A DNA stretch of 64,000 nucleotides from a virus: the IMG/VR virus record IMGVR_UViG_3300005826_000037, positions 32,001 to 96,000 of that record; one strand, written 5' to 3'. Within the stretch, counting starts at the first letter, position 1. Every line of letters starts with the position of its first letter. The position numbers and the translations under genes are program-made. Positions 1-50,737 of the stretch are shown piece by piece. The notes below the pieces were generated by a model. The model had not been told where the DNA came from and did no database searches. It was given only the letters and a program-made list of their open reading frames with translations.

Positions 1-2012
1 TTATTCGTACAGAAAATTTGATCATCAAATGAAACCATTAATTGACCAGAACCAGGGTCTTTACTAGTTATATTTGCTGTAAATGAAGAATATCCATCAT
101 AAGCAAAATTGGTAACATCACCAAATGTTGCGTGAGCTTTCATCTTTTTCGATAGATTATTTCCAATATCTGACGTTAATGATGATGCAATGCCATATCC
201 GTTTCTTTCCCTTAAAGTTGCTGTAATTACTATTGGTTGTGTTGTGAACTGTTTAGTGTGACTTATTTCAAAATCACTACTACAAGCATCAAAACCTAAC
301 TCAACAATATTTCCCAAAGCAGAGTTTGCATCATCACTTAATTTAGACATACATGCCAAAGCTGTTGCTTGAAATTGTGCTATACCCTCAACTGTTAAGT
401 TTCCACGGAAACCCGCAATAGCAGTGGACAAACATTGCTGTGCACCCTCAATGTCTGGGAAACCATTTGCAACTTCCATTGCGCTACCCAACAAAGATAA
501 CTTAAGAGCAACATCTCCAGCAATAGCCTCATTAACAAAAGTACGATCAAGTGATACATCAGGAATACATCCTGCAGTAATAATATCCTTACTCCATAAA
601 ACCTCATGATTTGGTTTGAATATATATTCAACGTTTTCATAGAAAATATATCCATCATCTTGATTTGGATTTGGATTATCAGTATTTATATCTTGCATAT
701 GAAAGAAATTATTCAGGGTTGCCTGTGTAGATAATTTTGCATATCCATCTTCTGCATAACCATACAAAATACTACCATCATCTTCATAACCTAAACCACC
801 ACCTATATAACATACTCCTGTTGGTACAGATTGGTTGCTATTATCATAAAATTTAAAATTAGATGATGGTACTTGCAACATAACACAATCTTTAAATTGA
901 ATCCATCGAGGATCTCCATCAGAAGAATTAGTTCTATTATATGTTGCAGGATTATAAAACATCCTCAAATCAAATGTATATGGAGCTTGTTTTGGTGGAG
1001 TTGCTGAAGTATAAGTTGAATCTGTTGGGAAAAACACTGGTTTTGGCGTATCAGAAATATCATAAGCATCATATATATTACTAAATGCTTGATTCTGTTC
1101 TTGATATACATCAAAAAATTGAAAACTTTCTGCTCTATATTCAAATGAGAAGGATGGTAATAATGAAAATGTTCTATTAATTTTCCTATAATATTGAAGT
1201 GTCCCTGTTATTCTCTCATAATCATTTTTTACAATCTCAGGACAAACTTCTGCATCACAACAATTGTCTGCATTAGTACTACCAACACTACTAGTACTAC
1301 CATCTCCACATGGAGGAATAGCAAATGCTAAACTCAAAATATCTCTAATAACTCCAAAAACAATATTAAATAGAGCGAGAAGAACAAATAAGTTCTGGAA
1401 TATACAAAGCAATGCACCTAACTTCTGAGCAATAGCCAAAATTGCATTATCATTCGCATCTCTAAATGCATTTGATAGTGCTAAAATGTTTCTTAAAATA
1501 AGTTGAATAAATTTGATTATTTGTTCAATTATATATTTAATCAAAGCTAGCAATAATAGTAGCAATGAAATTATCATAATGATAAGAGCCCATAATGGGA
1601 ATAGATTTAGAAAATCAGGAATACATCTTCTAAATAATCTTTTAACTGCTCTTAATACTTTGAATGGATTTTTTAAGGCGCAAAGAACTTCTATGACACA
1701 TAATAGTAACTTTAATAATGGGAGGAAAAACTTATACATCATAAGGTAAGGCATAAATTGATCAAGTAATTTCATAATCGCATCAAAAATATCCTTACCA
1801 AAATTAGGATTTAACTGTGGTAATAACGCTCCTGGAGGAATGAGCATTTGCAATTGATTCAATAAATCTAATAGATTCTCTGGAAATCCTTCTGGAAATG
1901 GATTGATGTTAGGTAGTTTAAGGGAAAAAGGCACCCCAAAACCTGGAATTGCAATTCCACTAGGACCATCAGGTAAATCTATTGATACATCATTTGGGCT
2001 ACATGGTGTCAT
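1..2012 (-). CDS. large baseplate-region protein with hydrophobic N-terminal helices and Ig-like C-terminal part; runs off the window edge (not in ORF track)
   Basis: Manual translation from ATG at 2012 gives MTPCSPNDVSIDLPDGPSGIAIPGFG...LWALIIMIISLLLLLLALIKY...; segments checked near 750, 650, 100 and 1 are in frame and open (...DPGSGQLMVSFDDQIFCTN). Follows the baseplate genes; at least 3 DGY motifs. Confidence 0.75.
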   Translation of the reverse strand, partial: MTPCSPNDVSIDLPDGPSGIAIPGFGVPFSLKLPNINPFPEGFPENLLDLLNQLQMLIPPGALLPQLNPNFGKDIFDAIMKLLDQFMPYLMMYKFFLPLLKLLLCVIEVLCALKNPFKVLRAVKRLFRRCIPDFLNLFPLWALIIMIISLLLLLLALIKYIIEQIIKFIQLILRNILALSNAFRDANDNAILAIAQKLGALLCIFQNLFVLLALFNIVFGVIRDILSLAFAIPPCGDGSTSSVGSTNADNCCDAEVCPEIVKNDYERITGTLQYYRKINRTFSLLPSFSFEYRAESFQFFDVYQEQNQAFSNIYDAYDISDTPKPVFFPTDSTYTSATPPKQAPYTFDLRMFYNPATYNRTNSSDGDPRWIQFKDCVMLQVPSSNFKFYDNSNQSVPTGVCYIGGGLGYEDDGSILYGYAEDGYAKLSTQATLNNFFHMQDINTDNPNPNQDDGYIFYENVEYIFKPNHEVLWSKDIITAGCIPDVSLDRTFVNEAIAGDVALKLSLLGSAMEVANGFPDIEGAQQCLSTAIAGFRGNLTVEGIAQFQATALACMSKLSDDANSALGNIVELGFDACSSDFEISHTKQFTTQPIVITATLRERNGYGIASSLTSDIGNNLSKKMKAHATFGDVTNFAYDGYSSFTANITSKDPGSGQLMVSFDDQIFCTN

Positions 2013-2020
2013 GCTTGTAT

Positions 2021-2028
2021 ATATATCA
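2021..2028 (-). promoter_or_regulatory. TGATATAT motif, 16 nt upstream of ATG (putative leaderless phage promoter)
   Basis: Minus strand reads TGATATATATACAAGC-ATG; same spacing at 6 other genes. Confidence 0.6.
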
Positions 2029-2029
2029 G

Positions 2030-2377
2030 TTAGTTTTGACCAGGAACTTTAGGCTCTAATACGCCAATATCTGATGTTTTCTTATTCAATGATCTTTCTA
2101 TTTCGGCAATACATTTATCAAGAACTGACTCAATTGCTGCGTCTACTTTCACAATATCAACAGAATCAATATCATGATAAATCATAACCTTAGCTGCAGC
2201 TTTCCATAAATCTCTTTTTATATCTTCTTTAAGATCATCAAAAGCATATGTATCAATTTCTGTTGCTGTTACTTTGGCAGCAGCCATTGCATTCTTTGCA
2301 AGTTTCTCCATTCCTTGATCATTTGCTTCTTGTGCCTGGAGTACAATTTTTGTTGTTGTTGATTTAATATTTTTCAT
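2030..2377 (-). CDS. hypothetical protein with helical motif shared with internal head proteins
   Basis: 115 aa ORF; ATGA overlap with the upstream gene; KIVLQAQEANDQGMEKLAKNAM resembles the LxxAxxLDxxGxxxxA motif. Confidence 0.7.
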   Translation of the reverse strand: MKNIKSTTTKIVLQAQEANDQGMEKLAKNAMAAAKVTATEIDTYAFDDLKEDIKRDLWKAAAKVMIYHDIDSVDIVKVDAAIESVLDKCIAEIERSLNKKTSDIGVLEPKVPGQN

Positions 2378-12628: not shown

Positions 12629-12631
12629 CTA

Positions 12632-12981
12632 TTATGCCTTTGGTTTTCTACGACGTCTTTTCTTCTTCTGAGCTTCTTTTTCCTGCAACATTAAGCTTTG
12701 TTCTTTAACTATTCTTGAAGACTCTTCAAATTCTTCATCTGTTGTCTCAATAGAATTTCCTCCAAGTATATTCTGAACAGCTTCTGGATTCCAGAATGAT
12801 GCTAATAAATATGCGTGATTTTTAGCTAGTTCCGCTTTTTGTTTTTGATCTGCTACCCAGTTTTCATACATCCATAATTTTTGAACCGGATCCATATCTG
12901 TTATTCTTGGATCGTCTGGAGTTGTCTGATAAACATTCGAACACAGATACCAGATAAAACGGTGTTCCGGTTCGTTTATTA
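12632..12981 (-). CDS. tail assembly chaperone C-terminal extension (gpT-like), reached by -1 frameshift
   Basis: The -1 frame is open from the slippery site: IINEPEHRFIWYLCSNVYQTTPDDPRITDMDPVQKLW..., continuous with ORF 12632-12895. Confidence 0.8.
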
Positions 12982-13617: not shown

Positions 13618-13666
13618 AAAAAACTCCACATTACTATTTGTTATTCGAACAATGGAATTAAAACCA

Positions 13667-13800
13667 TTCTAATATTGAATATAACAGTGAACTACTACTG
13701 ACTAAAGCCAGGAGCTTCTACCTTCTTTGACCTTTCTACTGAAAGCGCCTCCGGTAGTTTTTGATACGGGACTGCGTTCCACAACCCCAAGTTTATCATG
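13667..13800 (-). ncRNA. putative TnpB omega/reRNA overlapping the tnpB 3' end, with flanking guide
   Basis: GC-richer 3' segment ending at TTCAC; established TnpB architecture; bounds inferred. Confidence 0.5.
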
Positions 13801-15712: not shown

Positions 15713-18484
15713 TTATAGTTGACCTAGAGCTACCTTGATGTAAATGAAGTTTACTGGGTAGGTTGGTTGTACTCTTACTGTTATGTTCCATTGTCTTGGG
15801 TCTGATTCATCTTTAACTACTGAAAGGTCTGCATAAGCTGTAATTAAACTCTGCGAAACTAAGGAGTTCAACAAGATGACAGCGCGTGTATTCAAAGCGG
15901 CAGGAGTCTCTAGTGTTTCTGGTTGACCAATGAAAGAACGGAAACCTGATCTAAGTGTCTTTGCAACTCTATCTCTGATGAATACGATTGAAATCTCTTC
16001 CTCTTCTGGATATCCACTCTGAGTTGTGGTAATTCCCCAAACAACTCTTCCACCACCAGATACTGGTTGTAGTGTAGTAACACCAGCTTGAGCCAATCTC
16101 TCAAGAACAGATTGTGAGAATTGCTTATCTCTAAGGATTGTGAAACCTGTGAAAGTCTTATTAGTAAATGGATTTTCAATCCTAAGATCTTGTGCTGCAT
16201 AACCAGCTGCTGCAGCTGCAATGTAGAAACCATCAATAAGTACATTACTTGTTCCAGCTTGAACAACAATCTGATCTGGATAGAAGTATACACATCTATA
16301 TGTATTACCGAATGCATTTGAAACTGAGTAATCTGCAAGATCTTCGATATTACCAGCAAGAACTTCTGTTACGTTATCACCTTGGATACCTTCAAGAACT
16401 CCGATATCTTCAACTGCTGCTAATGATGTACCTGTCAAATTATCAGGTGTCAATCCATTAATAGCTCCACAGAATAATACTCTTTCCTTCTTATTTCTTA
16501 TATTACTCATTGATTTACAATGTGCAAGAGTATTTTGGAAGATAACAGATATTGTCTGCTTTGGAAGAGGAACAACGATATCACATTCAATAACTTCCAT
16601 TGACTCAAGAGCGTTAATCCATCCTGCATCGTAGAAAGAAGCATCTTTCGTTGTGATAACTGTAATTCTTAATTGGTAAGTATCAGGAACAACATTCTTA
16701 TTTACAACTACATAGTAACTTTCGTCTGTTAAGTCAAGGACTTCAAAACGCATATCACTTTCTTGAATTACACCCTTCCTTATAGTTACCTCAAATGAAG
16801 CTGAAGCTGTAATATCACTCAAACCATCATTTGCTTCATCAGAAGCAGTGATTTGAATTCTATAAAGAGTTCCAATATCTGGAACTGTACTAAAATCAAC
16901 AGTTGCACTTGTTAATGTTGCTGTTGCTGTTCCAGCAGATTTAACCAAAACACCATCTGTTCCAGAATAGCCATCAAGAGCTAATCCTGAGGAGATGCTA
17001 ACAACCTGGAATGCAACACCAGTATCATTTACATAATCTGGGAAGTATGGAGAAGCTTCAGTGCGAGTTACATAAAGATTACCGCCACTTACTGCCGTAA
17101 CAGTGTAGCTACCTTCATTTGCACTATTTGTTGCATTAATAATCTTTAAAGACTTTCCCACATATGATGAGTCATATTCAAGAGAAGAACTGAAAACGCC
17201 ACTATAGTAATTGCTACCACGTGCGATATATCCATCTTCACCATAAGAAAGAGCTTCATAACCAGCCTTCACTGTATAGAAGTATGACCATCCTGCAGGT
17301 GCAGGGGTATCATCAGTAATAAACTGGGTAGTTGTTGGGTATCCTGCTGTATCAAGCAAATAATAGTCCAACTTATTTGGAAGAATTTGAGACTCAACGT
17401 TTGTTGAATTATTCGTTACAAAGAAGTGAATATCAGAGTTTGGATCTGGGACAATACCTGCTGGCAATGGGAAAATGAAGTCATCATTATTTGTAGAAGT
17501 TGCATCCATACTCTCGGTAAGAATGTATGAAGTTCTTCTTGGCATTGCTGGCGCTGTTTGGCAAGCCATAACTGCTGGTGCTTGATTAGCAAATGCAAGC
17601 TGAGCACCTAAACTCAAAGTATTATCTGTGCTTGGGAAGCCATGCTTATTTATAAGAGACTGGAAACTATCGAATAATACAGGATCATTTAAGTTAGTAG
17701 TTGGAATATATGAAGCAGTCAATGTATCATTAGATACAAGAACACCACTATCAACTATGATTGTAAAACCATCACCCTCTCTAAATGGAGTTACTGACGA
17801 ACCGCCGCTCTTTGTTTCATAAATTGCAAAACTCAATACACCATTAGAAACTGCAGTTCCATTTGCGGTCCAAATTATTGGATTTCCATTTGAATCAACC
17901 TTTGCCCCAGAAATCGATCCAAAAGCGATGAATTTTGCAGTATTTTCTATTGGCAATCCTAACGCACTCCTCTGAACAGAAACACATCTAATTGTCCATG
18001 TTTCTGGAGGAGCATTAGTATCAACAAGGGATAAAGAAGCTAAATAACCATCACCAACATTTGTAGAAACTGGAGTATAATAAGCGCCACCTTGATCTCT
18101 CAAATGACCCCTTTGCAACTCTATTCTACCAGTAGTAATATCAACTCTGTAATCATATCTACTACTGAATGCGTTGCTATCTATGGTTGCTTCCAATCCT
18201 GTAAGCAAAACTCCATTTTTATACAATGAGGTTCTAGCAGAAACAACTGGATATGAGGACAATTGGAAATGTCTTCCATCTGCCCCTGTAGTTGAAGTGT
18301 ATGCAGAGTTAAATCCATCAACCCCTCCTCCAACTGCTTGGGCAACAATGGTTTCGTCTGCCGAACCCTCACCCATAATTGCTGCTATACGAGTACCACC
18401 AGGAATTGATACTCCCCTGGATTGTGTTACTATATCTGTAAAAACTCCTGGTAGGACATTTGTTGCGCCTGGGATGTTTGCCAT
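15713..18484 (-). CDS. contractile tail sheath protein
   Basis: N-terminal LPGVFT; C-terminal GRVVWGITT, ISIVFIRD and ITVRVQPTYPVNFIYI sheath signatures; 923 aa with inserted domains. Confidence 0.9.
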   Translation of the reverse strand: MANIPGATNVLPGVFTDIVTQSRGVSIPGGTRIAAIMGEGSADETIVAQAVGGGVDGFNSAYTSTTGADGRHFQLSSYPVVSARTSLYKNGVLLTGLEATIDSNAFSSRYDYRVDITTGRIELQRGHLRDQGGAYYTPVSTNVGDGYLASLSLVDTNAPPETWTIRCVSVQRSALGLPIENTAKFIAFGSISGAKVDSNGNPIIWTANGTAVSNGVLSFAIYETKSGGSSVTPFREGDGFTIIVDSGVLVSNDTLTASYIPTTNLNDPVLFDSFQSLINKHGFPSTDNTLSLGAQLAFANQAPAVMACQTAPAMPRRTSYILTESMDATSTNNDDFIFPLPAGIVPDPNSDIHFFVTNNSTNVESQILPNKLDYYLLDTAGYPTTTQFITDDTPAPAGWSYFYTVKAGYEALSYGEDGYIARGSNYYSGVFSSSLEYDSSYVGKSLKIINATNSANEGSYTVTAVSGGNLYVTRTEASPYFPDYVNDTGVAFQVVSISSGLALDGYSGTDGVLVKSAGTATATLTSATVDFSTVPDIGTLYRIQITASDEANDGLSDITASASFEVTIRKGVIQESDMRFEVLDLTDESYYVVVNKNVVPDTYQLRITVITTKDASFYDAGWINALESMEVIECDIVVPLPKQTISVIFQNTLAHCKSMSNIRNKKERVLFCGAINGLTPDNLTGTSLAAVEDIGVLEGIQGDNVTEVLAGNIEDLADYSVSNAFGNTYRCVYFYPDQIVVQAGTSNVLIDGFYIAAAAAGYAAQDLRIENPFTNKTFTGFTILRDKQFSQSVLERLAQAGVTTLQPVSGGGRVVWGITTTQSGYPEEEEISIVFIRDRVAKTLRSGFRSFIGQPETLETPAALNTRAVILLNSLVSQSLITAYADLSVVKDESDPRQWNITVRVQPTYPVNFIYIKVALGQL

Positions 18485-18633: not shown

Positions 18634-19458
18634 TTATGAGTTTAGTAGTATATCTAAAACACTAAGTTCTGTATTTATAGTTAAGTTTTGAGGGGCTGGA
18701 ACTTCTGGTCTCGATATATCATCAAAAGAAACAGAAAAGAAAATAGCATCTATTAAATTACCTATTGGAACTTCTCTTCTCCATTCTGTCCTTATATCTA
18801 ATGTGATACTTTGCCTAAACAACTTATCATTTCTATCATCAGTTTCTGATGGTGCACCTATATTAGGTGGTTTAATTAACAAACCTACATCATATAATGA
18901 GTCAACTGTTATTTCAGAAAAACACATTCCAACTAATTGTGCTAAATCATCTCTTGCTCTTAAACTTCTAGAAAAAATATCTATTACTATAGAGCCTTCC
19001 CAAGCTCCAGCTGTAACAAAACTAACTGGTCTTGTTATAATTGACTCATTACCATAACCATCTTCATATATTATTGTTTCGTTTCTTACTGTTCCCTTTT
19101 GTCTATTTATAGAAATTGGTACATATCTACTACCTCCACTTTTAACTAAAATAGCGGGATAAAATATTCCATCATATCTATAATTCTCTCCTATATAAAC
19201 TCTTGTACTCAGAAGATCTGATTCTTCTGCAGTAGAACCAAAAGCTCCTACTGGAAGGTCTGCTCCAAGAGGTATATCTGTATGATCAGTCGTATTAGGA
19301 AATCCCCACTGATCTTTTGAAAAATGATAATAACTGTCTTTTGAGAAAATATCTCTTAGAGTTGAAATTATAATCTCTTTTGGATACACAAGCATTGATG
19401 CTTGAATAATGTTATGTATCTCATATAAATCTGATTTAAAGACGTTATTTGTTGACAT
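18634..19458 (-). CDS. putative tail completion/terminator protein
   Basis: YPAILVKS...GSIVIDIFSRSLRARDDLAQLV...FRQSITLDIRTEW; immediately upstream of the sheath. Confidence 0.6.
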   Translation of the reverse strand: MSTNNVFKSDLYEIHNIIQASMLVYPKEIIISTLRDIFSKDSYYHFSKDQWGFPNTTDHTDIPLGADLPVGAFGSTAEESDLLSTRVYIGENYRYDGIFYPAILVKSGGSRYVPISINRQKGTVRNETIIYEDGYGNESIITRPVSFVTAGAWEGSIVIDIFSRSLRARDDLAQLVGMCFSEITVDSLYDVGLLIKPPNIGAPSETDDRNDKLFRQSITLDIRTEWRREVPIGNLIDAIFFSVSFDDISRPEVPAPQNLTINTELSVLDILLNS

Positions 19459-31315: not shown

Positions 31316-32215
31316 TCATATCAAACGCCTAGCGCGAAGGTGGCGAAGGCGTTTGAAGGCTGGATTTATTGCTGAATTCATTGAGAAAACGCCTAGTCCT
31401 CTTGGAGTAGGTCTAAGAGAATTCTTGATATACTTTAATTTTTCCCAATAGTGTGTTAACAATGCAGAATATTGAGTCATCATTAACTCAGAAACAGTTG
31501 GAGGATTAAAATTCAATCCATTATCTGTGAACTGAAATTCACGACCACGTTCAATAAGTGCTTTTGATGCTAATGCATAAAGAGTTGCGCCTTCAACAAG
31601 AATTTCACCAAATTGTTCAACAAAGTTATTATCATCAAATTCAAAAAATGTGAAGTAAGGAACCTGATTAAAATCCCATAAAGCTGTTGCAATAAAAGTA
31701 ACAAGTATATCATAAGAGAAAATATCACAATCTACATATACAACATTTCCATAAGCATCTGCTGATTTGGCTTTACCAGAGCTATTAAGTCTCGCTCTCA
31801 ATGATTTTACAAGCTTATTTATATTAGTTGTTGCTTCTTGAGAGTATTGAAATCCTGGATCATCACCAAGAGCCGTATATCCGTCCGTATTGGGATGTGG
31901 GATTTGCGTATAATTTATAATAAATTCAAATTGTGTTTCAACACGGAACCCATTGATATACGCGATCCAAATATCATGCCAAACACCATATGAGGCATTA
32001 ATTGGGGCAGTAAAAATATAACTATATAATCCAACTCCGGATCTAGATACTCCAACACTTGTTGGAGACATAAATACAGAACCACTTGGCTGAACTATAG
32101 ATATTTGTGGATATGAGTCTGCATCTACTAGATTACCAGAATGGTCTTTAAACTGAACAATTAAATTAACTTGATCAGTGGCTTCAATAAGCTCACCGCG
32201 TGCTTTTATAACCAT
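31316..32215 (-). CDS. putative head-tail adaptor/neck protein with N-terminal Ig-like domain
   Basis: Beta-rich N-terminus; helical C-terminus ALWDFNQVP...ALIERGREFQFTDNGLNFNPP; location between head and tail genes. Confidence 0.6.
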   Translation of the reverse strand: MVIKARGELIEATDQVNLIVQFKDHSGNLVDADSYPQISIVQPSGSVFMSPTSVGVSRSGVGLYSYIFTAPINASYGVWHDIWIAYINGFRVETQFEFIINYTQIPHPNTDGYTALGDDPGFQYSQEATTNINKLVKSLRARLNSSGKAKSADAYGNVVYVDCDIFSYDILVTFIATALWDFNQVPYFTFFEFDDNNFVEQFGEILVEGATLYALASKALIERGREFQFTDNGLNFNPPTVSELMMTQYSALLTHYWEKLKYIKNSLRPTPRGLGVFSMNSAINPAFKRLRHLRARRLI

Positions 32216-32255: not shown

Positions 32256-33086
32256 ATGAAAAACAGACTTGAAACAAAACTAACTAAAACAATACTAGAA
32301 TATGAATATAATAGATTAGGAAGTATGCAGAAGGTTGCTGACTATCTTCAAGTATCAATAGACAGTATTTATAAATATATGAAATTATATGAAATACCAT
32401 ATAATAAACATTACCAAGGAATATATGTTTGTAATGAAAATTATTTTAAAAATGATACTGAGGGATCTTTTTATTGGGCTGGATTTATAGCTGCAGATGG
32501 TTCGGTACAAAAAAGAAAATACTCTAAAATATTAAAAATAGCGTTATCACAAAATGACCATCAACACATTGAATTGTTTAAAAAATCAATCGAAAGTACA
32601 CATCCTATAAAAACACATGAAGTAAAACCAAGTAAATTAGTAAAAACAAAAAACATGTGTTCTGAAATACAAATTGCAAATAATAATATCTATAATGATC
32701 TAAATCGATTTAATATAATTCCTAATAAGACAAAAGTATATACATTTCCAGAATGGTTAATAGATCATGAATTAGTAAATCATTTTATGAGAGGATATTT
32801 TGATGGTGATGGTACTATAACTAACTGCGGTTTAGGAAAAAATAGATCTGTTATACAAAAATCATTTTCAATATTAGGGACAAAACAATTTATAGAGCAG
32901 TATATGAATACACTTATTTCCAAAACATTACTAAATGAAGTAAAAATATCACCACATTATTCTGTATTTAAATTATCTTATTCTGGAAATAACAACATCA
33001 AAACTATATATAATTTTTTATATAAAAACGCAACAATATATTTATATAGGAAACATAATAAATTTCAAGATGATATTACTGAGTAA
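32256..33086 (+). CDS. free-standing LAGLIDADG homing endonuclease
   Basis: YWAGFIAADG and FMRGYFDGDG. Confidence 0.9.
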   Translation: MKNRLETKLTKTILEYEYNRLGSMQKVADYLQVSIDSIYKYMKLYEIPYNKHYQGIYVCNENYFKNDTEGSFYWAGFIAADGSVQKRKYSKILKIALSQNDHQHIELFKKSIESTHPIKTHEVKPSKLVKTKNMCSEIQIANNNIYNDLNRFNIIPNKTKVYTFPEWLIDHELVNHFMRGYFDGDGTITNCGLGKNRSVIQKSFSILGTKQFIEQYMNTLISKTLLNEVKISPHYSVFKLSYSGNNNIKTIYNFLYKNATIYLYRKHNKFQDDITE

Positions 33087-33427
33087 ATACCATATGGTGC
33101 AGTTACTTGTAATATCACCGATTCTATTTTAAGCCTTCCAAAATCGTCTCTATATCGAATATCAACATAATAAGATCCAACAGCAGACGCTCCAGTAGGA
33201 ATACTTACATCTCCATAGAATATTCCAAGATCAAATTTTGTCATTGGAGATGGATAACCATCCATCAATGTAAGATTTGGCTTAATCACTCTATGAATAA
33301 CCGGGACAGAATACCCGTCTATAGGATATCCATCATAATAACCATCAGTATAATATCCATCCGTATCTAACACAGAAAGATAGATAGTTGCGACTTGACC
33401 TGGAGAATATGTTAGAAGCTGTGACAT
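33065..33427 (-). CDS. small Ig-like virion protein with tandem DGY cluster
   Basis: Start re-assigned to MSQLLTYSPG (TGATATAT motif at -16); resembles the N-terminus of 31316-32215; contains TDGYYTDGYYDGYPIDGY. Confidence 0.65.
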   Translation of the reverse strand: MSQLLTYSPGQVATIYLSVLDTDGYYTDGYYDGYPIDGYSVPVIHRVIKPNLTLMDGYPSPMTKFDLGIFYGDVSIPTGASAVGSYYVDIRYRDDFGRLKIESVILQVTAPYGIYSVISS

Positions 33428-35120: not shown

Positions 35121-35429
35121 TTAGCGTATTGCCCATGCCTCAATTCTTACAACACCAGACCCTCTAAACCATATTTTTGATATAACCCTATTCTCAAATA
35201 CTAAACTTTGACTAGCTTGACCAGAAGTCATATCTCCATGAAGAGTAATACCGTTAAATGAATATTCTAATGGTCCTCCACTCTCAAGATCAAATGTAAT
35301 AGTATATGTCATAAATGGAATTAATACCTGACATTCAGATGGGAAATAACCATCAGTAACATTTACTGTTAATTTATTGAAGTAATTGAAGTCTCTACCG
35401 TAATCTATTGGTCCGTATGGTGTGCCCAT
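35121..35429 (-). CDS. small beta-rich virion protein (paralog of 36484-36816)
   Basis: Shared EYSFxG..HG, LVFxNRVxSxIWFR and xAW motifs. Confidence 0.7.
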   Translation of the reverse strand: MGTPYGPIDYGRDFNYFNKLTVNVTDGYFPSECQVLIPFMTYTITFDLESGGPLEYSFNGITLHGDMTSGQASQSLVFENRVISKIWFRGSGVVRIEAWAIR

Positions 35430-35492: not shown

Positions 35493-36482
35493 TTAAGGTA
35501 TTTCTTTTTCACTACCTAATTGAATTTTTTGATAATGAAGATCTGTAGTCAGTATAGCTACATTTGCGGCAGGTGTTCCATATGTTTTACTTGTATTAAA
35601 TGTATCCGATGGACTTGTGCCATATCTTCTAAAATATATAATAATTGAAGTTGATTCCCTTGCCCAAGAAGGAGGGGTAATACTACCTAATGAAAGTATT
35701 TTTTGAGTATTTATATCACCGGGATTAACTGCAAAAGAACCACTAAAATATGTCCAACCAGACATTGCAGGAAGTGCATTTACATTATTAGGGCGAGTCC
35801 ACGCATAATACCCTTCAATATAAATATATTCAGTTGAAACAGGATCTGCTCCGATCATTACATGTATATGAGGTCTAACTGCAGTATCATATTTCCATTG
35901 ATGAGATGTTTGATAAACAAAATTAAGCTCATCATTTTGATCATGACGCAACCAATACATCTGAAAAGGAGTGTCTCTCCATACTTCTTTTGTTAATGCC
36001 GACACCCCAGTTCCTTGTTCTACTGGTCCTTGAATATCATCCCAACGACCAGCTTGCTTTGCCACCCAATAACCATCTGTAGCTGCAACAACACATAATC
36101 CATCAATAGTATGAGTATTTGCTTTTTCTAAAATATAAAAATCTTCTAACTCATTAACATAAATAGATGTTCCATCAGGAAGCCCAGTAGTATTAATTCC
36201 GCCTAAATCTGATAATAATGTGACCGGAGCTAATGAACTTAAATAACCATCAATTCCATCCAATTTCGCTTTATCACTACCAGAAATAAATCCGGCACTA
36301 ACATTAGAAATTGCTAATGAATGAAGATCTCCTCCAGATAAATTACCATGCTCATGGATATGGTCTGCCCTGCTAGCAGCATTATCTGTGCCAGCATGAA
36401 CAGTTCCTAAAGGTTCCGGTGGATCATTACTTAGAGGTCCATAACCATCACCACCAGATATTTGATAAATAAATCCACTCAT
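35493..36482 (-). CDS. fibre-like virion protein
   Basis: ASRADHIHEH and AGFISGSDKAKLDGI are typical phage fibre shaft motifs; 3 DGY. Confidence 0.6.
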   Translation of the reverse strand: MSGFIYQISGGDGYGPLSNDPPEPLGTVHAGTDNAASRADHIHEHGNLSGGDLHSLAISNVSAGFISGSDKAKLDGIDGYLSSLAPVTLLSDLGGINTTGLPDGTSIYVNELEDFYILEKANTHTIDGLCVVAATDGYWVAKQAGRWDDIQGPVEQGTGVSALTKEVWRDTPFQMYWLRHDQNDELNFVYQTSHQWKYDTAVRPHIHVMIGADPVSTEYIYIEGYYAWTRPNNVNALPAMSGWTYFSGSFAVNPGDINTQKILSLGSITPPSWARESTSIIIYFRRYGTSPSDTFNTSKTYGTPAANVAILTTDLHYQKIQLGSEKEIP

Positions 36483-36483: not shown

Positions 36484-36816
36484 TTAACCCCAAGCTTGAA
36501 TTGAAACTCTTATTGGTCCAGTACTTCCAGTTTTAACTCTAAACCAAATCAATGAAACAACTCTATTATCAAAAACAAGACCCTTTGTAACAGTGCTGGA
36601 GTCTAACTCGCCGTGAACTCCATATCCAGTAAAAGAATATTCTACTACACCAGTTCCTTCATTAATAAACATTATACCACGAGTTGTAAAAGGAATTACT
36701 ATATCAGGTCCATATCCATCTGATGCTCCTCCACCAAATGTACTCCAATTAACTTCTACTTTCTCAAAAAAATCATATTCTTTGCCAGTCTTTTTTCTAA
36801 TACCCGGATAACCCAT
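36484..36816 (-). CDS. small beta-rich virion protein (paralog of 35121-35429)
   Basis: EYSFTGYGVHGEL...LVFDNRVVSLIWFR...IQAWG. Confidence 0.7.
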   Translation of the reverse strand: MGYPGIRKKTGKEYDFFEKVEVNWSTFGGGASDGYGPDIVIPFTTRGIMFINEGTGVVEYSFTGYGVHGELDSSTVTKGLVFDNRVVSLIWFRVKTGSTGPIRVSIQAWG

Positions 36817-37689: not shown

Positions 37690-38453
37690 ACGTCCCTCCA
37701 TGTTCTACCCGATAAAATATTATTAATAATAAGCGCTGTAACATTAAATTTTTCAGCAAGCTCTTTTCTTGATAAATTATCAGGGTTTTCTTTTATATAT
37801 TTGACTTCATCCAATTTTAATTTTGATAATTTTTCCTTATGTTCTAATGATAGTTTTCTGCCTTTTGTATATTGATTTCCTAAATTAGCTTTTTTAATTC
37901 CTTCTCTAGTATTAGTATGCATTTTTGTGCCACGAAAACACTCCGATAATTTCTTTTTAGTTTCTTCTGTATGATTTTTGCCATAAAAAGGATTACCTTC
38001 TCCAGAAAATTGTCTACTCAATTCTTCTTTCATTTTATTAATTGATTCTTCCGTATGAGTTCTACCATAAAAAGGATTATTTTCTCCTTTGGTTGCATTA
38101 GATATTTTTTTTCTAGTTTCTTCGTTCATAACTGGGTGTTCACCACCAGTAGTACAATTATAACCATTTGGAGATATACAATTAGCAGTTTTAATCCAAT
38201 TACATTCTGCTTGATTTAAATCATCAATAGAAAAACATTCTTCAACAACAGTAATTTCAAAATTTTCTATTCCATACTTTCTAATTGCTCTATGGAATGG
38301 CAATTTAGATCCGTTATTTGCCATATAAATATGGTCATTAATTCTATATTTTAATTTTTGTGTTGTTTGACCTATATAAATTTTATTAGAAATTTTACAC
38401 TTAGCACAATAAATAACTCCATTTATCATTAATTCATTTTGAATTTTCATCAT
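37686..38453 (-). CDS. GIY-YIG homing endonuclease with NUMOD3 repeats
   Basis: GVIY...KIYIGQT; NPFYGRTHTEES and NPFYGKNHTEET. Confidence 0.9.
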   Translation of the reverse strand: MMKIQNELMINGVIYCAKCKISNKIYIGQTTQKLKYRINDHIYMANNGSKLPFHRAIRKYGIENFEITVVEECFSIDDLNQAECNWIKTANCISPNGYNCTTGGEHPVMNEETRKKISNATKGENNPFYGRTHTEESINKMKEELSRQFSGEGNPFYGKNHTEETKKKLSECFRGTKMHTNTREGIKKANLGNQYTKGRKLSLEHKEKLSKLKLDEVKYIKENPDNLSRKELAEKFNVTALIINNILSGRTWRDV

Positions 38454-39637
38454 AAACTCTCATCAACACTAGTACAATAAAATGTAATTGTTAACATCTC
38501 ACCATCAACACAAATATGATCGCCAGTTGTGACCCATAATTCCATTCCATAAGTTGAATACAACTCTCTTGCTGTTGCATAATTAAATGGAATAGCCTGA
38601 ACATTACTCTTCATTCCTCTGCATTTTCTTCTAAATTCTTTTAACGGCAAAGATTTATCAGCCTCACTTGCACCAATTGCATTTACAGTTGGCAAAGCTC
38701 CACGAGCCTCTGTAATAATCTGAGAAACTCTGTGGTAATAATCTTCTTGTAACGGAATCTTTGTTAATGAAGGATATGGAGTAACATTCCATGTAGAATT
38801 TCTAAAAGTTAAATACATGCCAATATCAATAACAGTAGCCCAATCTTCTTCACTTGGAACAGTTAATCCCCATGTATATCCATCCCATTGAACAACAGCA
38901 CCATCATATCCCGTCCAATCACCAGTTGCAGAAGCTCCTACAATATATGCATCTCCCACATCAGGAGACACAGGAGGATCTGAATATGATGCAGAAAGAA
39001 CATAACCTAAATCATTTGATCCTCTCATATACTGAGGAGCAAATACATCAACATAACCAACAACTATATATCCGAATCTAGTATTTAAAATACAATCCTG
39101 AGAAAAGTCAGACTCTGCATCTTCTATTCTTAAAGTCTTTCCAGGAGTTGGAACTAAATAAAATGTTGAATCTGTTGCATAATTAAAAGTTGCAGTGATT
39201 GTATTTCCTCTCATATCTGAGAAGAAATTAATCTCACCATTATCATAGTCTATCCAATAATAACCATCAGTTGATTCAAATTTAAATGGAGGACAAACTG
39301 TCTGCTCAACACCATTTACTTTAACAATTACAGAATATCCATGATCAGATTCATCAACCCATTTTTCTTGGTTGTGCATTCTTCCTGTAACCATATCAAT
39401 CCAATCAATATGAGCAGAGTTAGTACTTTTCCATACATAACCATCATAACCATCTTTAGCTTCTAATGCTTGGTCTTCTATTCTGGTAGAGCCTCCAAAC
39501 CAAGTTGTTTTATCACAGAAATTATGACTACCAACAACTACTTCAGATCCAACACGAGGAAAATGTGCCATTTTAGGCACTCCATCTTCTTGGGTTACCT
39601 GTAAATTAATTACTGTTGGGGGAGAAATAAATCCCAT
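38450..39637 (-). CDS. virion structural protein with inserted DUF2793-like domain
   Basis: DPPVSPDVGDAYIVGASATGDWTGYDGAVVQWDG.W matches the DUF2793 pattern; 4 DGY. Confidence 0.6.
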   Translation of the reverse strand: MGFISPPTVINLQVTQEDGVPKMAHFPRVGSEVVVGSHNFCDKTTWFGGSTRIEDQALEAKDGYDGYVWKSTNSAHIDWIDMVTGRMHNQEKWVDESDHGYSVIVKVNGVEQTVCPPFKFESTDGYYWIDYDNGEINFFSDMRGNTITATFNYATDSTFYLVPTPGKTLRIEDAESDFSQDCILNTRFGYIVVGYVDVFAPQYMRGSNDLGYVLSASYSDPPVSPDVGDAYIVGASATGDWTGYDGAVVQWDGYTWGLTVPSEEDWATVIDIGMYLTFRNSTWNVTPYPSLTKIPLQEDYYHRVSQIITEARGALPTVNAIGASEADKSLPLKEFRRKCRGMKSNVQAIPFNYATARELYSTYGMELWVTTGDHICVDGEMLTITFYCTSVDESL

Positions 39638-40879: not shown

Positions 40880-41476
40880 TCAGCTTTCTGGATGGTCAAA
40901 CCAACCAGACATTAAAAATGAAAAATCCCCAACTTCTACTGATTTTACTGTAATCCCAATACTTTGTCCAAATGGAATAATAATCGTGCCATCTAAAATA
41001 ACATCATTAAGACCCATACAAAAAAATTGAGAAAAGGCAAATAACCCATTTGTGGCTACAGTAATCCCATTACCAACCCCATCCCAAATTTGGCATTCAG
41101 ATGGAGATGTCAAAGATTTACCAAAATTAGTACTACTCGGAGTAATATCAGTATAATTTGCCGTTGGAGGATATGTGCCAACATAAAAAGCACCTCTAAT
41201 AGGCTTATTATAATTTGTAGAACCACCATTAAAAGATAACATTAATCTGTGCACATGAAACTCTCTGCTGCTATCTGTATTTTTAAATCTAAATATCAGA
41301 TATTCATTAGTTCCTGGCAATGTTTTATCATAAACACCGTAAGTAAAGGAATACCCAGTTGTATTAGCAACGTTTGCCAATGTACTAGAGTTAATACCTT
41401 TGGTCCATAACCTTTGATCTTCCACCCTGGCAACAGAACCAGTTCCTGCGCCGTCTTTTACTCTAAAATCACTCAT
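40880..41476 (-). CDS. virion protein, tandem paralog 3
   Basis: VKDGAGTGSVARVEDQRL. Confidence 0.6.
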   Translation of the reverse strand: MSDFRVKDGAGTGSVARVEDQRLWTKGINSSTLANVANTTGYSFTYGVYDKTLPGTNEYLIFRFKNTDSSREFHVHRLMLSFNGGSTNYNKPIRGAFYVGTYPPTANYTDITPSSTNFGKSLTSPSECQIWDGVGNGITVATNGLFAFSQFFCMGLNDVILDGTIIIPFGQSIGITVKSVEVGDFSFLMSGWFDHPES

Positions 41477-42518
41477 CTATATCTCCAGTATCAACATCAA
41501 ATTCATTCATCTCAGCAAGATGCTTCTCAATTCGTTTTAAAACCAAAGTAATCTCATTTAATGTATTAACAGCCTCCGCATCACTAGTAAATAATCTAAT
41601 ATTATCAGTGCCTTCACGCTCTACATTAATACTCGCATCATCTGCTTTAGGTCCTTTGAGAACAATGTTAGTGTTATCCTCAATATTAACATTGATTGGA
41701 AGAGAAGTATAATTACCAGCAATCTGAACAACATTATGATTTAATAATCTTATACTATCCATATACAAATAAGTGTTTGATGTTTGATTATCAAGATTCC
41801 TAATATCTATATATATATTAAGTGTATTATATACTTCTGGCATATGTCTTTCATGAAGAGCAACTTTTTTACCATCAACAACGCAAGCAGCATACCCAAA
41901 ACCCATCTCAATTCTTACTTTCAAATTTGATGATGTTCTCAATTTATTTGGTATTGAAAAATCAGTTGATTGCACAGTTCCAACAGCCCCAGTACAACTG
42001 GTTGAAAATGTTGCCAAATCAGTTGCTGGTGATGTGTACTCTAAATAGGCAAAACCACCGTGCATATTGGTAAAGCCAACTCTTGTTGTTTGACTTGATT
42101 TTCTTCCAAAAATACGAAGCTCAAACTCCATTATTGTTGGTAAAGTATGTCCTGGATGAGTAAGTGTTGCATAACCATCTGAGCCGGTTCCAAGTATTAT
42201 AATCAGATTTGATGCTGAAACTAATACTGAAGAACCATTTGTATCAGTTGTCCAATCAGAACTTAACGCGCTATTAAAATCAAAATAATAAGAACCCTCG
42301 TCAGTAAATACTTGACTCCTTGTTGCAATACCACCATGTTCATCTATAAGAAAGGGAGATTTCTCTCCTGCAGAAACAATTGGATAATCTAGAGAAGGAT
42401 CTGGAAAATGCCCTCCAATACCAATTCCCTTTGGATATACAGATATATGATAACCATCAATTAAAACTGGATTACCATATCCATCATATAATATCACAGC
42501 AGGGCTATCATAACTCAT
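41469..42518 (-). CDS. virion protein with possible lectin-like beta-sandwich and C-terminal coiled coil
   Basis: Beta-rich core (VRIEMGFGYAACVVDGKKVALH); helical tail; 3 DGY. Confidence 0.5.
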   Translation of the reverse strand: MSYDSPAVILYDGYGNPVLIDGYHISVYPKGIGIGGHFPDPSLDYPIVSAGEKSPFLIDEHGGIATRSQVFTDEGSYYFDFNSALSSDWTTDTNGSSVLVSASNLIIILGTGSDGYATLTHPGHTLPTIMEFELRIFGRKSSQTTRVGFTNMHGGFAYLEYTSPATDLATFSTSCTGAVGTVQSTDFSIPNKLRTSSNLKVRIEMGFGYAACVVDGKKVALHERHMPEVYNTLNIYIDIRNLDNQTSNTYLYMDSIRLLNHNVVQIAGNYTSLPINVNIEDNTNIVLKGPKADDASINVEREGTDNIRLFTSDAEAVNTLNEITLVLKRIEKHLAEMNEFDVDTGDIDE

Positions 42519-43261
42519 GCAATCGTCCTCGTTCTATTCACTTCAAAAACTCCATTATATGCAATAGTATCCGTTACAGTAGCCAATAAAACATCAGAGG
42601 CATCATATATCTTCCATGTTACTGTAGCAGGTGTTTTATTACTATTATATGTATAAGTCTTCTCAACAATTTTATTTGTCTTTGCAATGCTTGTATACCA
42701 AATAACTGAAGTGGGAAATGGATCTGCTTCTGGTAAAACTTCTTTATAAGCTCCAGATGCAAACCCACTTGCAGGACCTTCATTGATAAAATGAATAAGT
42801 TGCCTTAAAGCAGTATGCTGATTTTCAGAAATAGAATTTATAGATATTTCTACAATTGCATCTTGTACATTATGAGAAGATATTTTTGATAAACCTGTTG
42901 GATCAAATCCTATTTTACTAGAACCAACAGGATGCATAAAATATATGTAACCATCTGTTGAGTCATTAATATATCCATCAATAGATAATGTAAGATTAGT
43001 TAATATTTCATCTACAATATAATAACCATCAGCACTTCCACCGCTAGTTCCAGTAAGATAAATTCTATCTCCAGACTCTACTGCATTATCTCTACCATAT
43101 AAAATGCCCTCATTATCTGGGGGCATATTTATTTCAACAACTGAAGTAGAACTAGTGGTGGATACCAAAGTAGAAGATAAATATACGTAATACCCGTCAG
43201 AAGCAAGTTCTTCGGAGTCAATAATGTCTAAATCACGTATATCCTCTTTTCTAATTGTCAT
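42515..43261 (-). CDS. putative fibre/structural protein
   Basis: NVQDAIVEI fibre-type motif; 4 DGY. Confidence 0.55.
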   Translation of the reverse strand: MTIRKEDIRDLDIIDSEELASDGYYVYLSSTLVSTTSSTSVVEINMPPDNEGILYGRDNAVESGDRIYLTGTSGGSADGYYIVDEILTNLTLSIDGYINDSTDGYIYFMHPVGSSKIGFDPTGLSKISSHNVQDAIVEISINSISENQHTALRQLIHFINEGPASGFASGAYKEVLPEADPFPTSVIWYTSIAKTNKIVEKTYTYNSNKTPATVTWKIYDASDVLLATVTDTIAYNGVFEVNRTRTIA

Positions 43262-43978: not shown

Positions 43979-45466
43979 TCATGCATAAATCATGTAATTG
44001 ATATGATCACCTGCCTTGACTTTATAATAGAAAGTTACCTGAGTTGTTGAGGTTTCTGCATAATCATTTCCATCAACAATTGGTCCTGGGTCTCTCAAAA
44101 CACCTCTTGTAAACAAAACAAGATATTGACCGTTATTAGTTCCGTCAAGTGTGTATGTATTTGCTCCTGGAAGAGTGTGAGCTACGCCTGCATCAATATC
44201 AACAGTTACTCTTTCAATAACTCTTGTCATAGAAGCTGTTCCCAATGCATCAGCCAACTCTTGCAAAGATTGTGTAATGGTGTATCCATCAGTCAAGATA
44301 GAGCCGGTGTAGTTTCTATCACCAATCTGCTCATTCAAGGTATTAAGAGCTTCAACAACACTTGGGGTTGCATCTGGAAGATTATTAAATGGATAATAAA
44401 TACCAGTATTAGTCAAAAGACCTGCAAGACTAGTATCTCCATCGGATGTTCCAATTGTATCCAAGATATCACTAATATCTTGTTTCATTCCAGAATCACC
44501 AATGATACCATTGGTTAATGTAGTTCTGAAGTCAGTTTCATTGATTTGGTCTACTCTTGTACGATAACCGTAATACAAATCAACTGTTGTTGGTTGGTAT
44601 CCATCCCATGTATATGCTACGGAAGAGCTTAATGCATCGCCAAATGGAACTGCTCTAAACTCAATTTCAACAGAGTTTGGTGATACACCTGTTGTTCCTG
44701 CACGAGTAAGACCGAAGATTCTGTAACCATCAGTAGAGCCACCAACAGCAACTAATGCAGCCTCAGTTAATGGGTTGATGATTTCAACATAACATGCATC
44801 ATAATTTCCAGCGTCTGCACCATCAGTGATTGGAACACCAGTTGTGTCTGTCGCATCAGCATGCTTCAAATTACCTGTATCAGTAATTGTTGTATAGCCA
44901 TCGCCTTGACTGACTGCATCATCAGTGAACAATCTATTCATAACCCATGCGTGGGCATCCATTGTCTTACTTGCAATGTTAGAAAGATTTGCAGGGACGT
45001 TTGTTCCAACAGCAGTTGGTCTTTGATAAGTTGGGATTGCTGCAGAATAAGCAACACCCTTGATTGCAGCACGGTCTGTACGCTCAAAATTAAGGTCGTC
45101 TTCCAAACTATATGGATATCTCTCTATCCAAGTTACATATCCATCATTTGCAACAGCAGAAGCATTAGAGATATCAACAGATGTTGCTGAATTGTAAGTG
45201 ATAATTAGGAAGGTTCCGTTATTTCCACCCTGAGAAGCTCCGGAAATGGAAAGGAAATTTCCAATAGAACTGACAGTCATTCCTGTCAATCCAGTAAGTG
45301 TTGCTACACCAGCAACAACAGAACCAATGTAACCATCAGTTCCAGTTTGACCACTAAGCGCAGAACCTAGACTATTAGGCTCGTCCGCTAAAGTCATTGA
45401 AGCATTCTTAGTTAGTGAACCAGCAATATCAAGAGCTTGGTCCAACGCATTTTCTCTAGATGTCAT
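43979..45466 (-). CDS. putative head fibre/decoration structural protein
   Basis: T/G/A/D-rich; SVVEALNTL and TITQSLQEL fibre motifs; C-terminal LFTRGVL...NDYAET domain; 6 DGY; strong SD. Confidence 0.6.
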   Translation of the reverse strand: MTSRENALDQALDIAGSLTKNASMTLADEPNSLGSALSGQTGTDGYIGSVVAGVATLTGLTGMTVSSIGNFLSISGASQGGNNGTFLIITYNSATSVDISNASAVANDGYVTWIERYPYSLEDDLNFERTDRAAIKGVAYSAAIPTYQRPTAVGTNVPANLSNIASKTMDAHAWVMNRLFTDDAVSQGDGYTTITDTGNLKHADATDTTGVPITDGADAGNYDACYVEIINPLTEAALVAVGGSTDGYRIFGLTRAGTTGVSPNSVEIEFRAVPFGDALSSSVAYTWDGYQPTTVDLYYGYRTRVDQINETDFRTTLTNGIIGDSGMKQDISDILDTIGTSDGDTSLAGLLTNTGIYYPFNNLPDATPSVVEALNTLNEQIGDRNYTGSILTDGYTITQSLQELADALGTASMTRVIERVTVDIDAGVAHTLPGANTYTLDGTNNGQYLVLFTRGVLRDPGPIVDGNDYAETSTTQVTFYYKVKAGDHINYMIYA

Positions 45467-46220: not shown

Positions 46221-46223
46221 GGC

Positions 46224-48809: not shown

Positions 48810-48817
48810 ATTAATCT

Positions 48818-48825
48818 ATATATCA
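48818..48825 (-). promoter_or_regulatory. TGATATAT motif 16 nt upstream of ATG 48809
   Basis: TGATATATAGATTAAT-ATG. Confidence 0.6.
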
Positions 48826-48859
48826 AGTGAAACATAGTTTGTGCCAGGTATGTATTATA

Positions 48860-48891
48860 AAAATAAAGCCGAGATTACTCGGCTTTATTTT
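48860..48891. terminator. bidirectional rho-independent terminator downstream of the major capsid gene
   Basis: Perfect 14-bp inverted repeat AAAATAAAGCCGAG-ATTA-CTCGGCTTTATTTT. Confidence 0.85.
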
Positions 48892-48932
48892 AAATTAAGT
48901 TGGTGTCTAAGTATTTGATTTTATTCAAAACC

Positions 48933-49943
48933 TTATTCGACAACTACGCTTTTACGCCCGGCTGCGACGCCTCTTGGGTTTACAATGGCGAGACCAATAA
49001 TCTCACTTACGACCCAACCCAGCTTAAGTTGCTTTGGTTCATCTGCTGGAAGTACTTCAATATCCTGACGAATTGGCATGACTCCAACGAATTCGGGGTC
49101 TGCCGCACCGTAGATCGTTCCGGGAGGGACAATCTTGCTCACCATAATGTCTGAGCCCCAAATGTGAGCATAAAGACCAGTTTGAAGAACTTCACGCATG
49201 GTGACAGGATCGAAATCGCCGCCAGATACGCCTTGTCCACCACCAGATCCCCACTTAAGGATATCGGTGAACTCATTGATGTTCATGAAATACTTGGTTG
49301 TGACAAGGTCCCAGCGATCGATCTGTTGTTTAATTTCAACTAGGTCTCTCTTAAGCAATCCAGCATCAGCGATATCGGTAAGGGTGTTTTCAACGGAAGC
49401 AGCTGCATCCAATGCTGCGAAGACGTTTGCATCTTCTTGTGCCATCATTTCTTGACGTGCCTTTTGGACAGCTCTGTCGATGACGTTGAATCTACGCCTT
49501 TTGACTTCTGCAATACGTACAGTTGGATTTGCGTAAAGTTCGAACTCAGGAACTACAACACGGTCACCAAAAACTCTGGACTCTGGTCCAGTACCGTTGC
49601 TAGAAATAACAACAGCTGCAACATCGATGTCACGGTCATAAGTTGGCATTGCACCTTGTGGAAGAGGATCAACAACCAATGCTCTACGAGCAATTCCATG
49701 GTAGTCAAGGTTTCTACGGATTGGGTTTGCCATTGCTTGTGCAAGAGCAATCTTTCCATCTTGAGTCATGATAGCACGGGAGATAAGCTCATCACGCTTC
49801 TCATCGCTCAATTGTGGTTGTCCAGCGAGACCCATATTGGAAGGTTGGTTCTCTTCGAGAATTGCGGCATACTTTACAAGAGTTTGTAAAGCATCCTTTA
49901 AAGATCCGGCGTTCATTTCGCCATGGTTATTAAACATATTCAT
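48933..49943 (-). CDS. major capsid protein (HK97 fold)
   Basis: ALAQAMANPIRRNLDYHGIARRALVVDPLPQG, AQEDANVF, GWVVSEIIGLAIVNPRGVA; higher GC, strong SD and terminator; downstream of protease/scaffold and decoration genes. Confidence 0.85.
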   Translation of the reverse strand: MNMFNNHGEMNAGSLKDALQTLVKYAAILEENQPSNMGLAGQPQLSDEKRDELISRAIMTQDGKIALAQAMANPIRRNLDYHGIARRALVVDPLPQGAMPTYDRDIDVAAVVISSNGTGPESRVFGDRVVVPEFELYANPTVRIAEVKRRRFNVIDRAVQKARQEMMAQEDANVFAALDAAASVENTLTDIADAGLLKRDLVEIKQQIDRWDLVTTKYFMNINEFTDILKWGSGGGQGVSGGDFDPVTMREVLQTGLYAHIWGSDIMVSKIVPPGTIYGAADPEFVGVMPIRQDIEVLPADEPKQLKLGWVVSEIIGLAIVNPRGVAAGRKSVVVE

Positions 49944-50071
49944 TATTTATTCTCCTAGAATTTTTTGCCAGTCTTACCAGCTTTATTTATTTAAACTTAA
50001 AGGATAGGGGATCCCCGAATTAACAGGGTTTAATTTAGCCCACTCCCCTGGGCAGACTTAAGTCTTATTTA

Positions 50072-50737
50072 TCAGAATTGTGGGTTAAAGTGGAACACTG
50101 CGAAAGCATATGTTCTAGCACTTGACAATGCTGATGCTAGGTAGTTTGGAGTGGTTACCAAAGAACCGTTTGTTACGAATTCAACAAAGTGTCCAACAAC
50201 AACTGTATTGGAATTTGCTAACGTTGATCCAACAGGAGTTAATTGTCCGCCCTTAAGAGTTGCTGGAGCAAATGTTAAGGAAGCACCAACTGCCAAAGTT
50301 GTATTGGTTGGTGTCAAACCATCAGCTGCTGCTGTGTCACATGCGTCCAAAGAGACTGCATAGAGACCTGGTTTATCCCAGCAAGTTACCTTGCCAGAGC
50401 CGGTTGCAGTGTGAGGTCCGAGGACAGCGCCACCTGTGGAAACTAATCCAACAGTTCCGCCAACAACAGATCCAAACAAAGTTCCATATCCAGATGTTCC
50501 TTCATCAGCCAACATCAAAGGACGAGAAGAAGTTGCGACTGTAGCAGTGACAACAGTTCTCTTATTTGGGGTTACATACCCATCAAAAACATCCCAAGAT
50601 GCTTTATCTGTGGAAACACCTGTTACAACAGATGAAAAGGTTACGATTTCTCCACCCTTGAGATATGTTGCTTCTGTATCAAGACCATCGAACTGACCCA
50701 ATGGTTGAATTCCTGGTTGCAAAAGTTTTAAAGCCAT
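50072..50737 (-). CDS. head decoration/cement protein
   Basis: Immediately upstream of the MCP; G/T/A-rich; GSGKVTCW; paralog of 57511-58203. Confidence 0.65.
   Translation of the reverse strand: MALKLLQPGIQPLGQFDGLDTEATYLKGGEIVTFSSVVTGVSTDKASWDVFDGYVTPNKRTVVTATVATSSRPLMLADEGTSGYGTLFGSVVGGTVGLVSTGGAVLGPHTATGSGKVTCWDKPGLYAVSLDACDTAAADGLTPTNTTLAVGASLTFAPATLKGGQLTPVGSTLANSNTVVVGHFVEFVTNGSLVTTPNYLASALSSARTYAFAVFHFNPQF

Follow-up and report, generated by a model that had tools for sequence, protein, structure and literature searches.

The window analysed here is a stretch of 64,000 nt that spans positions 32,001 to 96,000 of a contig of 113,644 nt from an uncultured giant phage (IMG/VR record IMGVR_UViG_3300005826_000037, genome label G000). 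It encodes a virion module in which the tripeptide Asp-Gly-Tyr (DGY) occurs far more often than chance allows. In a separate set of non-overlapping open reading frames (ORFs), a tripeptide count gives 55 DGY in 17 ORFs against 4.3 expected from the composition of each protein (z = 24.4); it is by far the top tripeptide of the window, the second most deviant reaching z = 7, and a first-order Markov model gives an expectation of 12.2. The whole contig carries 75 copies where 7.4 are expected, including 5, 10 and 2 in three giant fibre-like ORFs of 1304, 2392 and 1365 amino acids (aa) just before the window, and on the virion proteins of the contig and its clade the excess over chance is about 13-15-fold. 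The preliminary description of this DNA, made from the sequence alone, had counted the same 55 copies in the same 17 ORFs, had put the chance expectation at about four and had noted how often DG is followed by Y in individual proteins (10 of 14 in the ORF at 27233, 5 of 5 at 33065 and 4 of 4 at 42515). The independent ORF set returns the same figures, and the excess survives the composition correction that had been named beforehand as able to overturn it. The excess falls on unrelated proteins, in independent contexts and in virion modules only, as would be expected of a short site shared by many substrates. No description of a DGY tag was found in the literature searched, where Asp-Gly-Tyr is nowhere tied to phages.

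A signal at the DNA or RNA level, such as a nine-nucleotide site of the form GATGGWTAT, or an artefact of repeated domains could be suspected from the strong strand asymmetry, as the contig has 76 GAYGGNTAY sites on the coding strand and a single one on the opposite strand. However, 74 of the 76 sites are in frame 0, none is intergenic and the wobble positions follow background codon usage (GAT at 69 and TAT at 64 of the 74 sites, with 41 GGA and 25 GGT). The sites are moreover restricted to certain genes interleaved with DGY-free genes, and the peptide is kept, with varied codons, in genomes of 33 to 43% GC. Only one pair of paralogous contexts exists among the 75 DGY, which rules out domain duplication as their source. 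The frame and codon analyses refute this explanation for practical purposes, leaving it extremely improbable, and bear out the earlier suggestion that synonymous codon variation points to selection on the peptide.

Within the peptide, both outer residues are specified. The variants NGY, EGY, DGF, DGW, DAY, DSY and YGD all occur at expectation. In virion proteins the ratio of DGY to DGF is 72:5, compared with 73:62 for xGY to xGF where x is not Asp (odds ratio 12, p = 3e-10), and no such coupling of Asp and Tyr around Gly is seen in the rest of the proteome. No wider consensus flanks the tripeptide beyond weak preferences and a depletion of nearby Lys and Arg. Being in frame, encoded by background codons, specific in its Asp and Tyr, free of a flanking consensus and almost free of paralogous contexts, DGY is thus a specific tripeptide selected as a unit, at the peptide and not the DNA level.

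The excess is restricted to virion modules, with 72 DGY seen and 5.3 expected in this contig, 56 and 4.0 in the related genome G010, and 25 and 3.3 in the related genome G017 (13.6-, 14- and 7.6-fold, respectively). The remaining proteomes are at background, with 3 seen and 2.1 expected, 24 and 16.9, and 19 and 14.7 in the same order. A 279-aa protein of G010 that does not look structural (351354-352193, minus strand) contains both DGYAPVDGY and DGYSDGY. The DGY-bearing proteins of the window, and the major capsid protein (MCP) as an internal contrast, are as follows.

3..2012, minus strand: virion protein of 734 aa, of which the C-terminal 670 aa lie in the window; 3 DGY; orthologues in G010 and G017 with 2 each; no Pfam or PHROG match.
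15713..18484, minus strand: tail sheath, 923 aa; 3 DGY at residues 145, 417 and 504; matches PHROG sheath families.
18634..19458, minus strand: virion protein, 274 aa; 1 DGY.
19462..20448, minus strand: virion protein, 328 aa; 1 DGY.
20459..25342, minus strand: virion protein, 1627 aa; 6 DGY; orthologues with 6 (G010) and 3 (G017).
25779..27221, minus strand: fibre-like protein, 480 aa; 2 DGY; weak DUF5907 repeat match.
27233..29242, minus strand: neck protein, 669 aa; 10 DGY; N-terminal FN3-like domains and a C-terminal neck fold.
31316..32215, minus strand: virion protein, 299 aa; 1 DGY each in G000, G010 and G017.
33068..33427, minus strand: small β-rich protein, 120 aa; 5 DGY, of which four cluster in a 17-residue stretch of a single variable loop.
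35121..35429, minus strand: protein of 102 aa; 1 DGY.
35493..36482, minus strand: protein of 329 aa; 3 DGY.
36484..36816, minus strand: protein of 110 aa; 1 DGY.
38450..39637, minus strand: fibre-like protein, 395 aa, with a DUF2793 domain; 4 DGY.
41469..42518, minus strand: protein of 349 aa; 3 DGY.
42515..43261, minus strand: protein of 248 aa; 4 DGY, accounting for all 4 of its DG.
43979..45466, minus strand: protein of 495 aa; 6 DGY.
48933..49943, minus strand: MCP (phrog_2522, E = 1e-77); 0 DGY.
50072..50737, minus strand: candidate decoration protein adjoining the MCP, 221 aa; 1 DGY, and 1 each in the G010 and G017 orthologues.

The true start of the 120-aa protein is the ATG at 33427 and not the TTG at 33517; its loop varies in length and holds one to four DGY in orthologues. 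DGY is absent from the MCP, from the 216-aa tail-tube candidate and from the ORFs of 779, 1665, 670 and 298 aa, which reproduces the zero counts previously given for inner proteins; the absence itself is not significant, since by a rough estimate two to three copies would be expected in these proteins. Pfam and PHROG searches gave no match for most virion ORFs, so that most 'inner' and 'outer' labels are unverified: family or fold support exists for the sheath, the MCP and the neck protein, and the other labels follow gene order.

An AlphaFold2 model of the neck protein (predicted local-distance difference test score, pLDDT, 78.6) matches the necks of Pam3 (8hdr_A) and phage 812 (8qkh_A) and FN3 arrays in Foldseek searches. 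The conserved neck fold itself is free of DGY, all ten copies being N-terminal to residue 370. At most modelled sites the Asp is in a loop and the Gly-Tyr pair opens a strand or bridge, and three copies fall inside a disordered insert (residues 239-260). The expectation that the motif would map to exposed turns is therefore upheld as far as loop-to-strand junctions and disordered inserts in this model are concerned, exposure itself being presumed. Sheath residues 127-245 are paralogous to neck residues 169-301 (46% identity), and the sheath version of this shared domain has a single DGY where the neck version has seven, the surplus having arisen through substitution and an insert. Judged from this pair of sequences, DGY is dispensable for the folds that carry it, in line with the earlier view of a motif placed on unrelated folds.

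Bacillus phage G, the nearest isolate, has an MCP 53% identical to that of the contig. The MCP is shared by more than 269 metagenomic relatives. Among the best 80 of 269 related IMG/VR stretches, from contigs of up to 480 kb, it is 91-97% identical within the clade, whereas identity falls to 45-70% for the proteins of neck, sheath and fibres. DGY is enriched in every clade member examined, and the fibre proteins of 32 non-redundant loci contain 375 copies where 25.2 are expected. In phage G no excess is found in 141 kb spanning the head and tail genes (7 copies against 6.0 expected) or in the tail module (3 against 2.2). When orthologues of 45-70% identity are compared, 39-43% of DGY sites are conserved, as opposed to about 20% for other tripeptides, and the lost sites are mostly xGx turn triplets. 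In the neck family (110 homologues) there are on average 4.8 DGY per protein against 0.19 expected, distributed over about 30 alignment columns of which one is invariant, four are common and about 25 are sporadic. A parsimony count of gains on the neck-family tree was not discriminating: for other tripeptide states the number of apparent changes per carrier is higher still (0.72, compared with 0.43 for DGY), which means that the tree has poor resolution or that recombination occurs among the genes. Several neck homologues (P0004, P0005 and P0010) are about 1060 aa long and contain inteins and LAGLIDADG domains. The proposed check for lineage specificity thus has a positive outcome, with gain and loss among homologues and an excess throughout the clade that phage G lacks.

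These data bear directly on the possibility that DGY has an intrinsic structural or chemical role, either as a favoured Asp-Gly β-turn whose following aromatic residue opens the next strand or by way of spontaneous Asp-Gly chemistry (succinimide or isoaspartate), metal binding, or Tyr cross-links that would harden the particle. The placement of Asp in loops with Gly-Tyr opening a strand agrees with such a role, as do the replacement of lost sites mostly by xGx, N-x-x or DGx turn triplets and the one site that is invariant in 110 of 111 homologues. Asp-Gly is also the classic aspartimide-prone pair, and Asp-Gly-Tyr appears in a passage of a review on aspartimide formation in peptide synthesis (PMC12447389). 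However, turn propensity leaves unexplained both the lack of enrichment of NGY, DGF and DGW and the coupling of Asp to Tyr; the same fold works with one or seven copies, several copies lie in disordered inserts and not in hairpins, and there is no excess in phage G or in the non-virion proteins of the same genomes. A β-turn required by the fold should hold fixed positions in distant homologues, which is not the pattern of one invariant site among some 30 variable ones in the neck family. An ordinary conserved turn, which the preliminary description had listed as an outcome that would count against it, is thus not what is observed, and an intrinsic role is considered unlikely.

DGY could also be an unmodified docking or adhesion epitope, with many weak copies binding a partner that could be a virion-decorating phage protein, such as the Kelch β-propellers of the clade, or a host or environmental polymer. 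Tandem, irregularly spaced copies in flexible loops would suit multivalent binding, and the strict specificity for Asp and Tyr fits a defined reader. Each complete clade genome encodes two Kelch-repeat proteins and phage G encodes none; the ability of Kelch propellers such as Keap1 to recognize short acidic-Gly turn motifs counts in favour of docking. On the other hand, a three-residue site by itself yields little binding energy, and Kelch proteins as virion-bound DGY binders are hypothetical. The Kelch proteins (98306-99553 and 74784-75689 in G010, 159431-160645 in G017) are encoded outside the virion module and themselves bear 2-6 DGY at the canonical DG-K blade position; in the larger protein of G010 and G017, DGY replaces DG-K before the GG doublet in several blades. 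Because DGY occurs within them, they look like bearers and not readers of the motif. Docking is probably not the explanation.

The reading preferred here is that DGY is a short recognition tag on outward-facing virion proteins that would be read inside the infected cell by a phage-encoded modification system, most likely one that glycosylates the Tyr hydroxyl and is specified by conserved sugar genes directly after the fibre genes. These genes lie 18-26 kb before the window start, flanked by the last fibre gene on one side and a TubZ tubulin gene on the other, and encode RmlB (dTDP-glucose 4,6-dehydratase; TIGR01181, 1.7e-100), two GT2 glycosyltransferases, a GT4 glycosyltransferase (G000 12525-13661; weak GT4/GT1 match) and a 326-aa protein that has a membrane helix at its N-terminus and shows no signature of an enzyme. 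The genome that carries the tag therefore also encodes glycosyltransferases and an enzyme of sugar-nucleotide synthesis. The RmlB gene is split by an intein (G000 6277-8265, about 24 kb before the window), giving a product of 662 aa compared with 317-324 aa in G010 and G017. The TubZ/PhuZ-like tubulin (G000 4842-6218) is 72-78% identical in the clade and always stands beside the sugar cluster. The earlier statement that no candidate modifying enzyme is visible in the window holds for the plus-strand ORFs of the module, which encode LAGLIDADG endonucleases, a 2H phosphoesterase and a CCA-adding enzyme, none of them a modifying enzyme; it loses its force just outside the window, where this enzyme set is found.

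Among 54 related loci, GT4 follows the fibre gene in every locus that extends more than about 1 kb past it, and RmlB is present wherever this flank reaches far enough. A lineage with 32% fibre identity has the same gene order and 7 DGY against 0.36 expected in its fibre ORFs. DGY and GT4 occur together in every clade locus examined, down to this fibre identity, and phage G, the sole outgroup, has neither the excess nor a GT4 homologue. The model of GT4 (pLDDT 93.5) is that of a GT-B enzyme, with the chlorovirus glycosyltransferase 3oy2 as its best structural match (15% identity), followed by generic GT4 enzymes. In the proposed pathway GT4 would be the constant member, RmlB would supply a 6-deoxyhexose precursor and the two GT2 enzymes would be optional extenders. 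That DGY is a sequon for glycosylation of virion proteins on Tyr by this fibre-linked GT4 pathway is put forward tentatively, its probability being judged to fall somewhat short of even. A slightly more doubtful extension is that a whole clade of giant phages from sediment, soil and freshwater may wear a Tyr-linked sugar coat on tail, neck and fibres, attached at DGY through the GT4 pathway.

Several observations weigh against this assignment. The whole clade has GT4 and RmlB, which leaves no contrast of presence and absence within it and makes the comparison hinge on phage G; the co-occurrence with a glycosyltransferase that had been suggested as a check is accordingly seen across the clade and in the joint absence from phage G, with no case of loss inside the clade. 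By sequence, the closest non-phage relatives of GT4 are domains of giant multi-glycosyltransferase proteins that resemble polysaccharide builders, and by fold it matches generic members of the GT4 family whose substrates are sugars, lipids or small molecules; neither comparison supports a protein acceptor. Several lineages that retain the DGY enrichment have no GT2 genes, one lineage has the sugar genes but only 2 DGY in its large fibres (with enrichment elsewhere on the contig) and a further GT-B gene lies elsewhere in each complete clade genome. Modification of DNA or of the host surface is a conceivable alternative role for the sugar genes. Glycosylation of DGY is a proposal from genes and sequences, from which we infer that something is attached, that the sugar enzymes are the agents and that Tyr is the acceptor. 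The sequon reading of the preliminary description is thus strengthened in respect of peptide selection, independence of fold, turnover and lineage specificity, and stays an inference in respect of the modification itself. GT4-like domains recur two to five times per protein in giant proteins of 1000-5000 aa that are rich in Ala, Leu and Arg and not in DGY (P0150-P0270). A comparison of DGY density with the presence of GT2 (means of 12.1 and 8.75) was set aside, as only four loci lack GT2 and they are not independent.

The tag might alternatively be a sequon for another modification of Tyr or Asp, such as phosphorylation, sulfation, nucleotidylation or hydroxylation, by an unrecognized phage or host enzyme. 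That Tyr is favoured over Phe suggests a role for the hydroxyl group, and most genes of the 450-480-kb clade genomes have no family match, which leaves room for such an enzyme. Against this, a search of five genomes with a few families gave no GT8 match and one sub-threshold sulfotransferase-like match, and within those few families no such enzyme was linked to the virion module. This alternative is regarded as quite improbable, and glycosylation by the GT4 pathway is retained as the preferred reading.

Mobile and accessory genes interrupt the structural genes of the window. Three LAGLIDADG homing endonuclease genes (29814-30653, 32256-33086 and 58260-59219, plus strand) and a GIY-YIG-like endonuclease gene (37686-38453, minus strand) are inserted among them, and the 2H phosphoesterase, which is LigT-like with a weak Acb1 anti-CBASS match, is encoded within the module at 30694-31266 (plus strand). 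A transposase gene (13695-14879, minus strand; phrog_506, E = 1.6e-125) lies between the tail-tube candidate and presumed chaperone genes and has no counterpart in G010 or G017.

A strict three-residue tag on dozens of unrelated virion proteins in hundreds of giant phages implies an undescribed reader. If that reader is a glycosyltransferase, DGY would be a defined tyrosine sequon of possible use in glyco-engineering, and giant phages would shield or functionalize their tails with sugars; it would be the first glycosylation sequon directed at Tyr and, among phages, the first sequon system to span the virion. If it is instead a binding partner or a chemical cross-link, the tag would represent a new principle of virion surface organization.

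Several known systems offer partial parallels. In the work of Freeman et al. (2023, Cell Host Microbe; PMC10527164), as cited in PMC12619734, mycobacteriophage virions carry glycans at the C-termini of capsid and tail-tube subunits. The likeness lies in phage glycosyltransferase genes beside structural genes and in a sugar coat, here a proposed one, on the virion; the difference lies in a Tyr tripeptide that is scattered over neck, sheath and fibres and whose glycan is hypothetical. The MCP and the tube candidate of the present phage lack DGY and the tag is not C-terminal, so the mycobacteriophage pattern is not reproduced.

The capsid of chlorovirus PBCV-1 is glycosylated by virus-encoded enzymes at atypical sequons, and 3oy2, the best match of GT4, is the glycosyltransferase B736L of chlorovirus NY-2A. 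Virus-encoded cytoplasmic glycosylation at a non-canonical short site is common to the chloroviruses and the present proposal; the chlorovirus linkage, however, is N-linked to Asn on the capsid protein of a eukaryotic virus, and the match is one of a generic GT-B fold at 15% identity. Short sequons are also used by bacteria, namely D-(S/T)-(A/I/L/V/M/T) in O-glycosylation by Bacteroidota and N-X-S/T in cytoplasmic glycosylation by HMW1C/NGT. There too, many surface proteins unrelated to one another are marked by a three-residue site that starts with or includes an acidic or polar residue, but the acceptors are Ser/Thr or Asn and not Tyr, the enzymes are unrelated, and the Bacteroidota system, unlike that proposed here, acts outside the cytoplasm.

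Tyrosine O-glycosylation is found in the S-layer glycoproteins of Paenibacillus and Thermoanaerobacter (PMC2943079) and is catalysed by the toxins Afp18 and YeGT (PMC4518317, PMC11152714). Unlike GT4, Afp18 and YeGT are GT-A enzymes that act on host GTPases, and the S-layer route differs from the proposed one in being lipid-linked and extracellular. We know of no DGY site in either kind of Tyr glycosylation. Both nevertheless resemble the present proposal in that bacterial enzymes can glycosylate tyrosine, and some S-layer glycans are rich in rhamnose, which would fit the presence of an RmlB gene.

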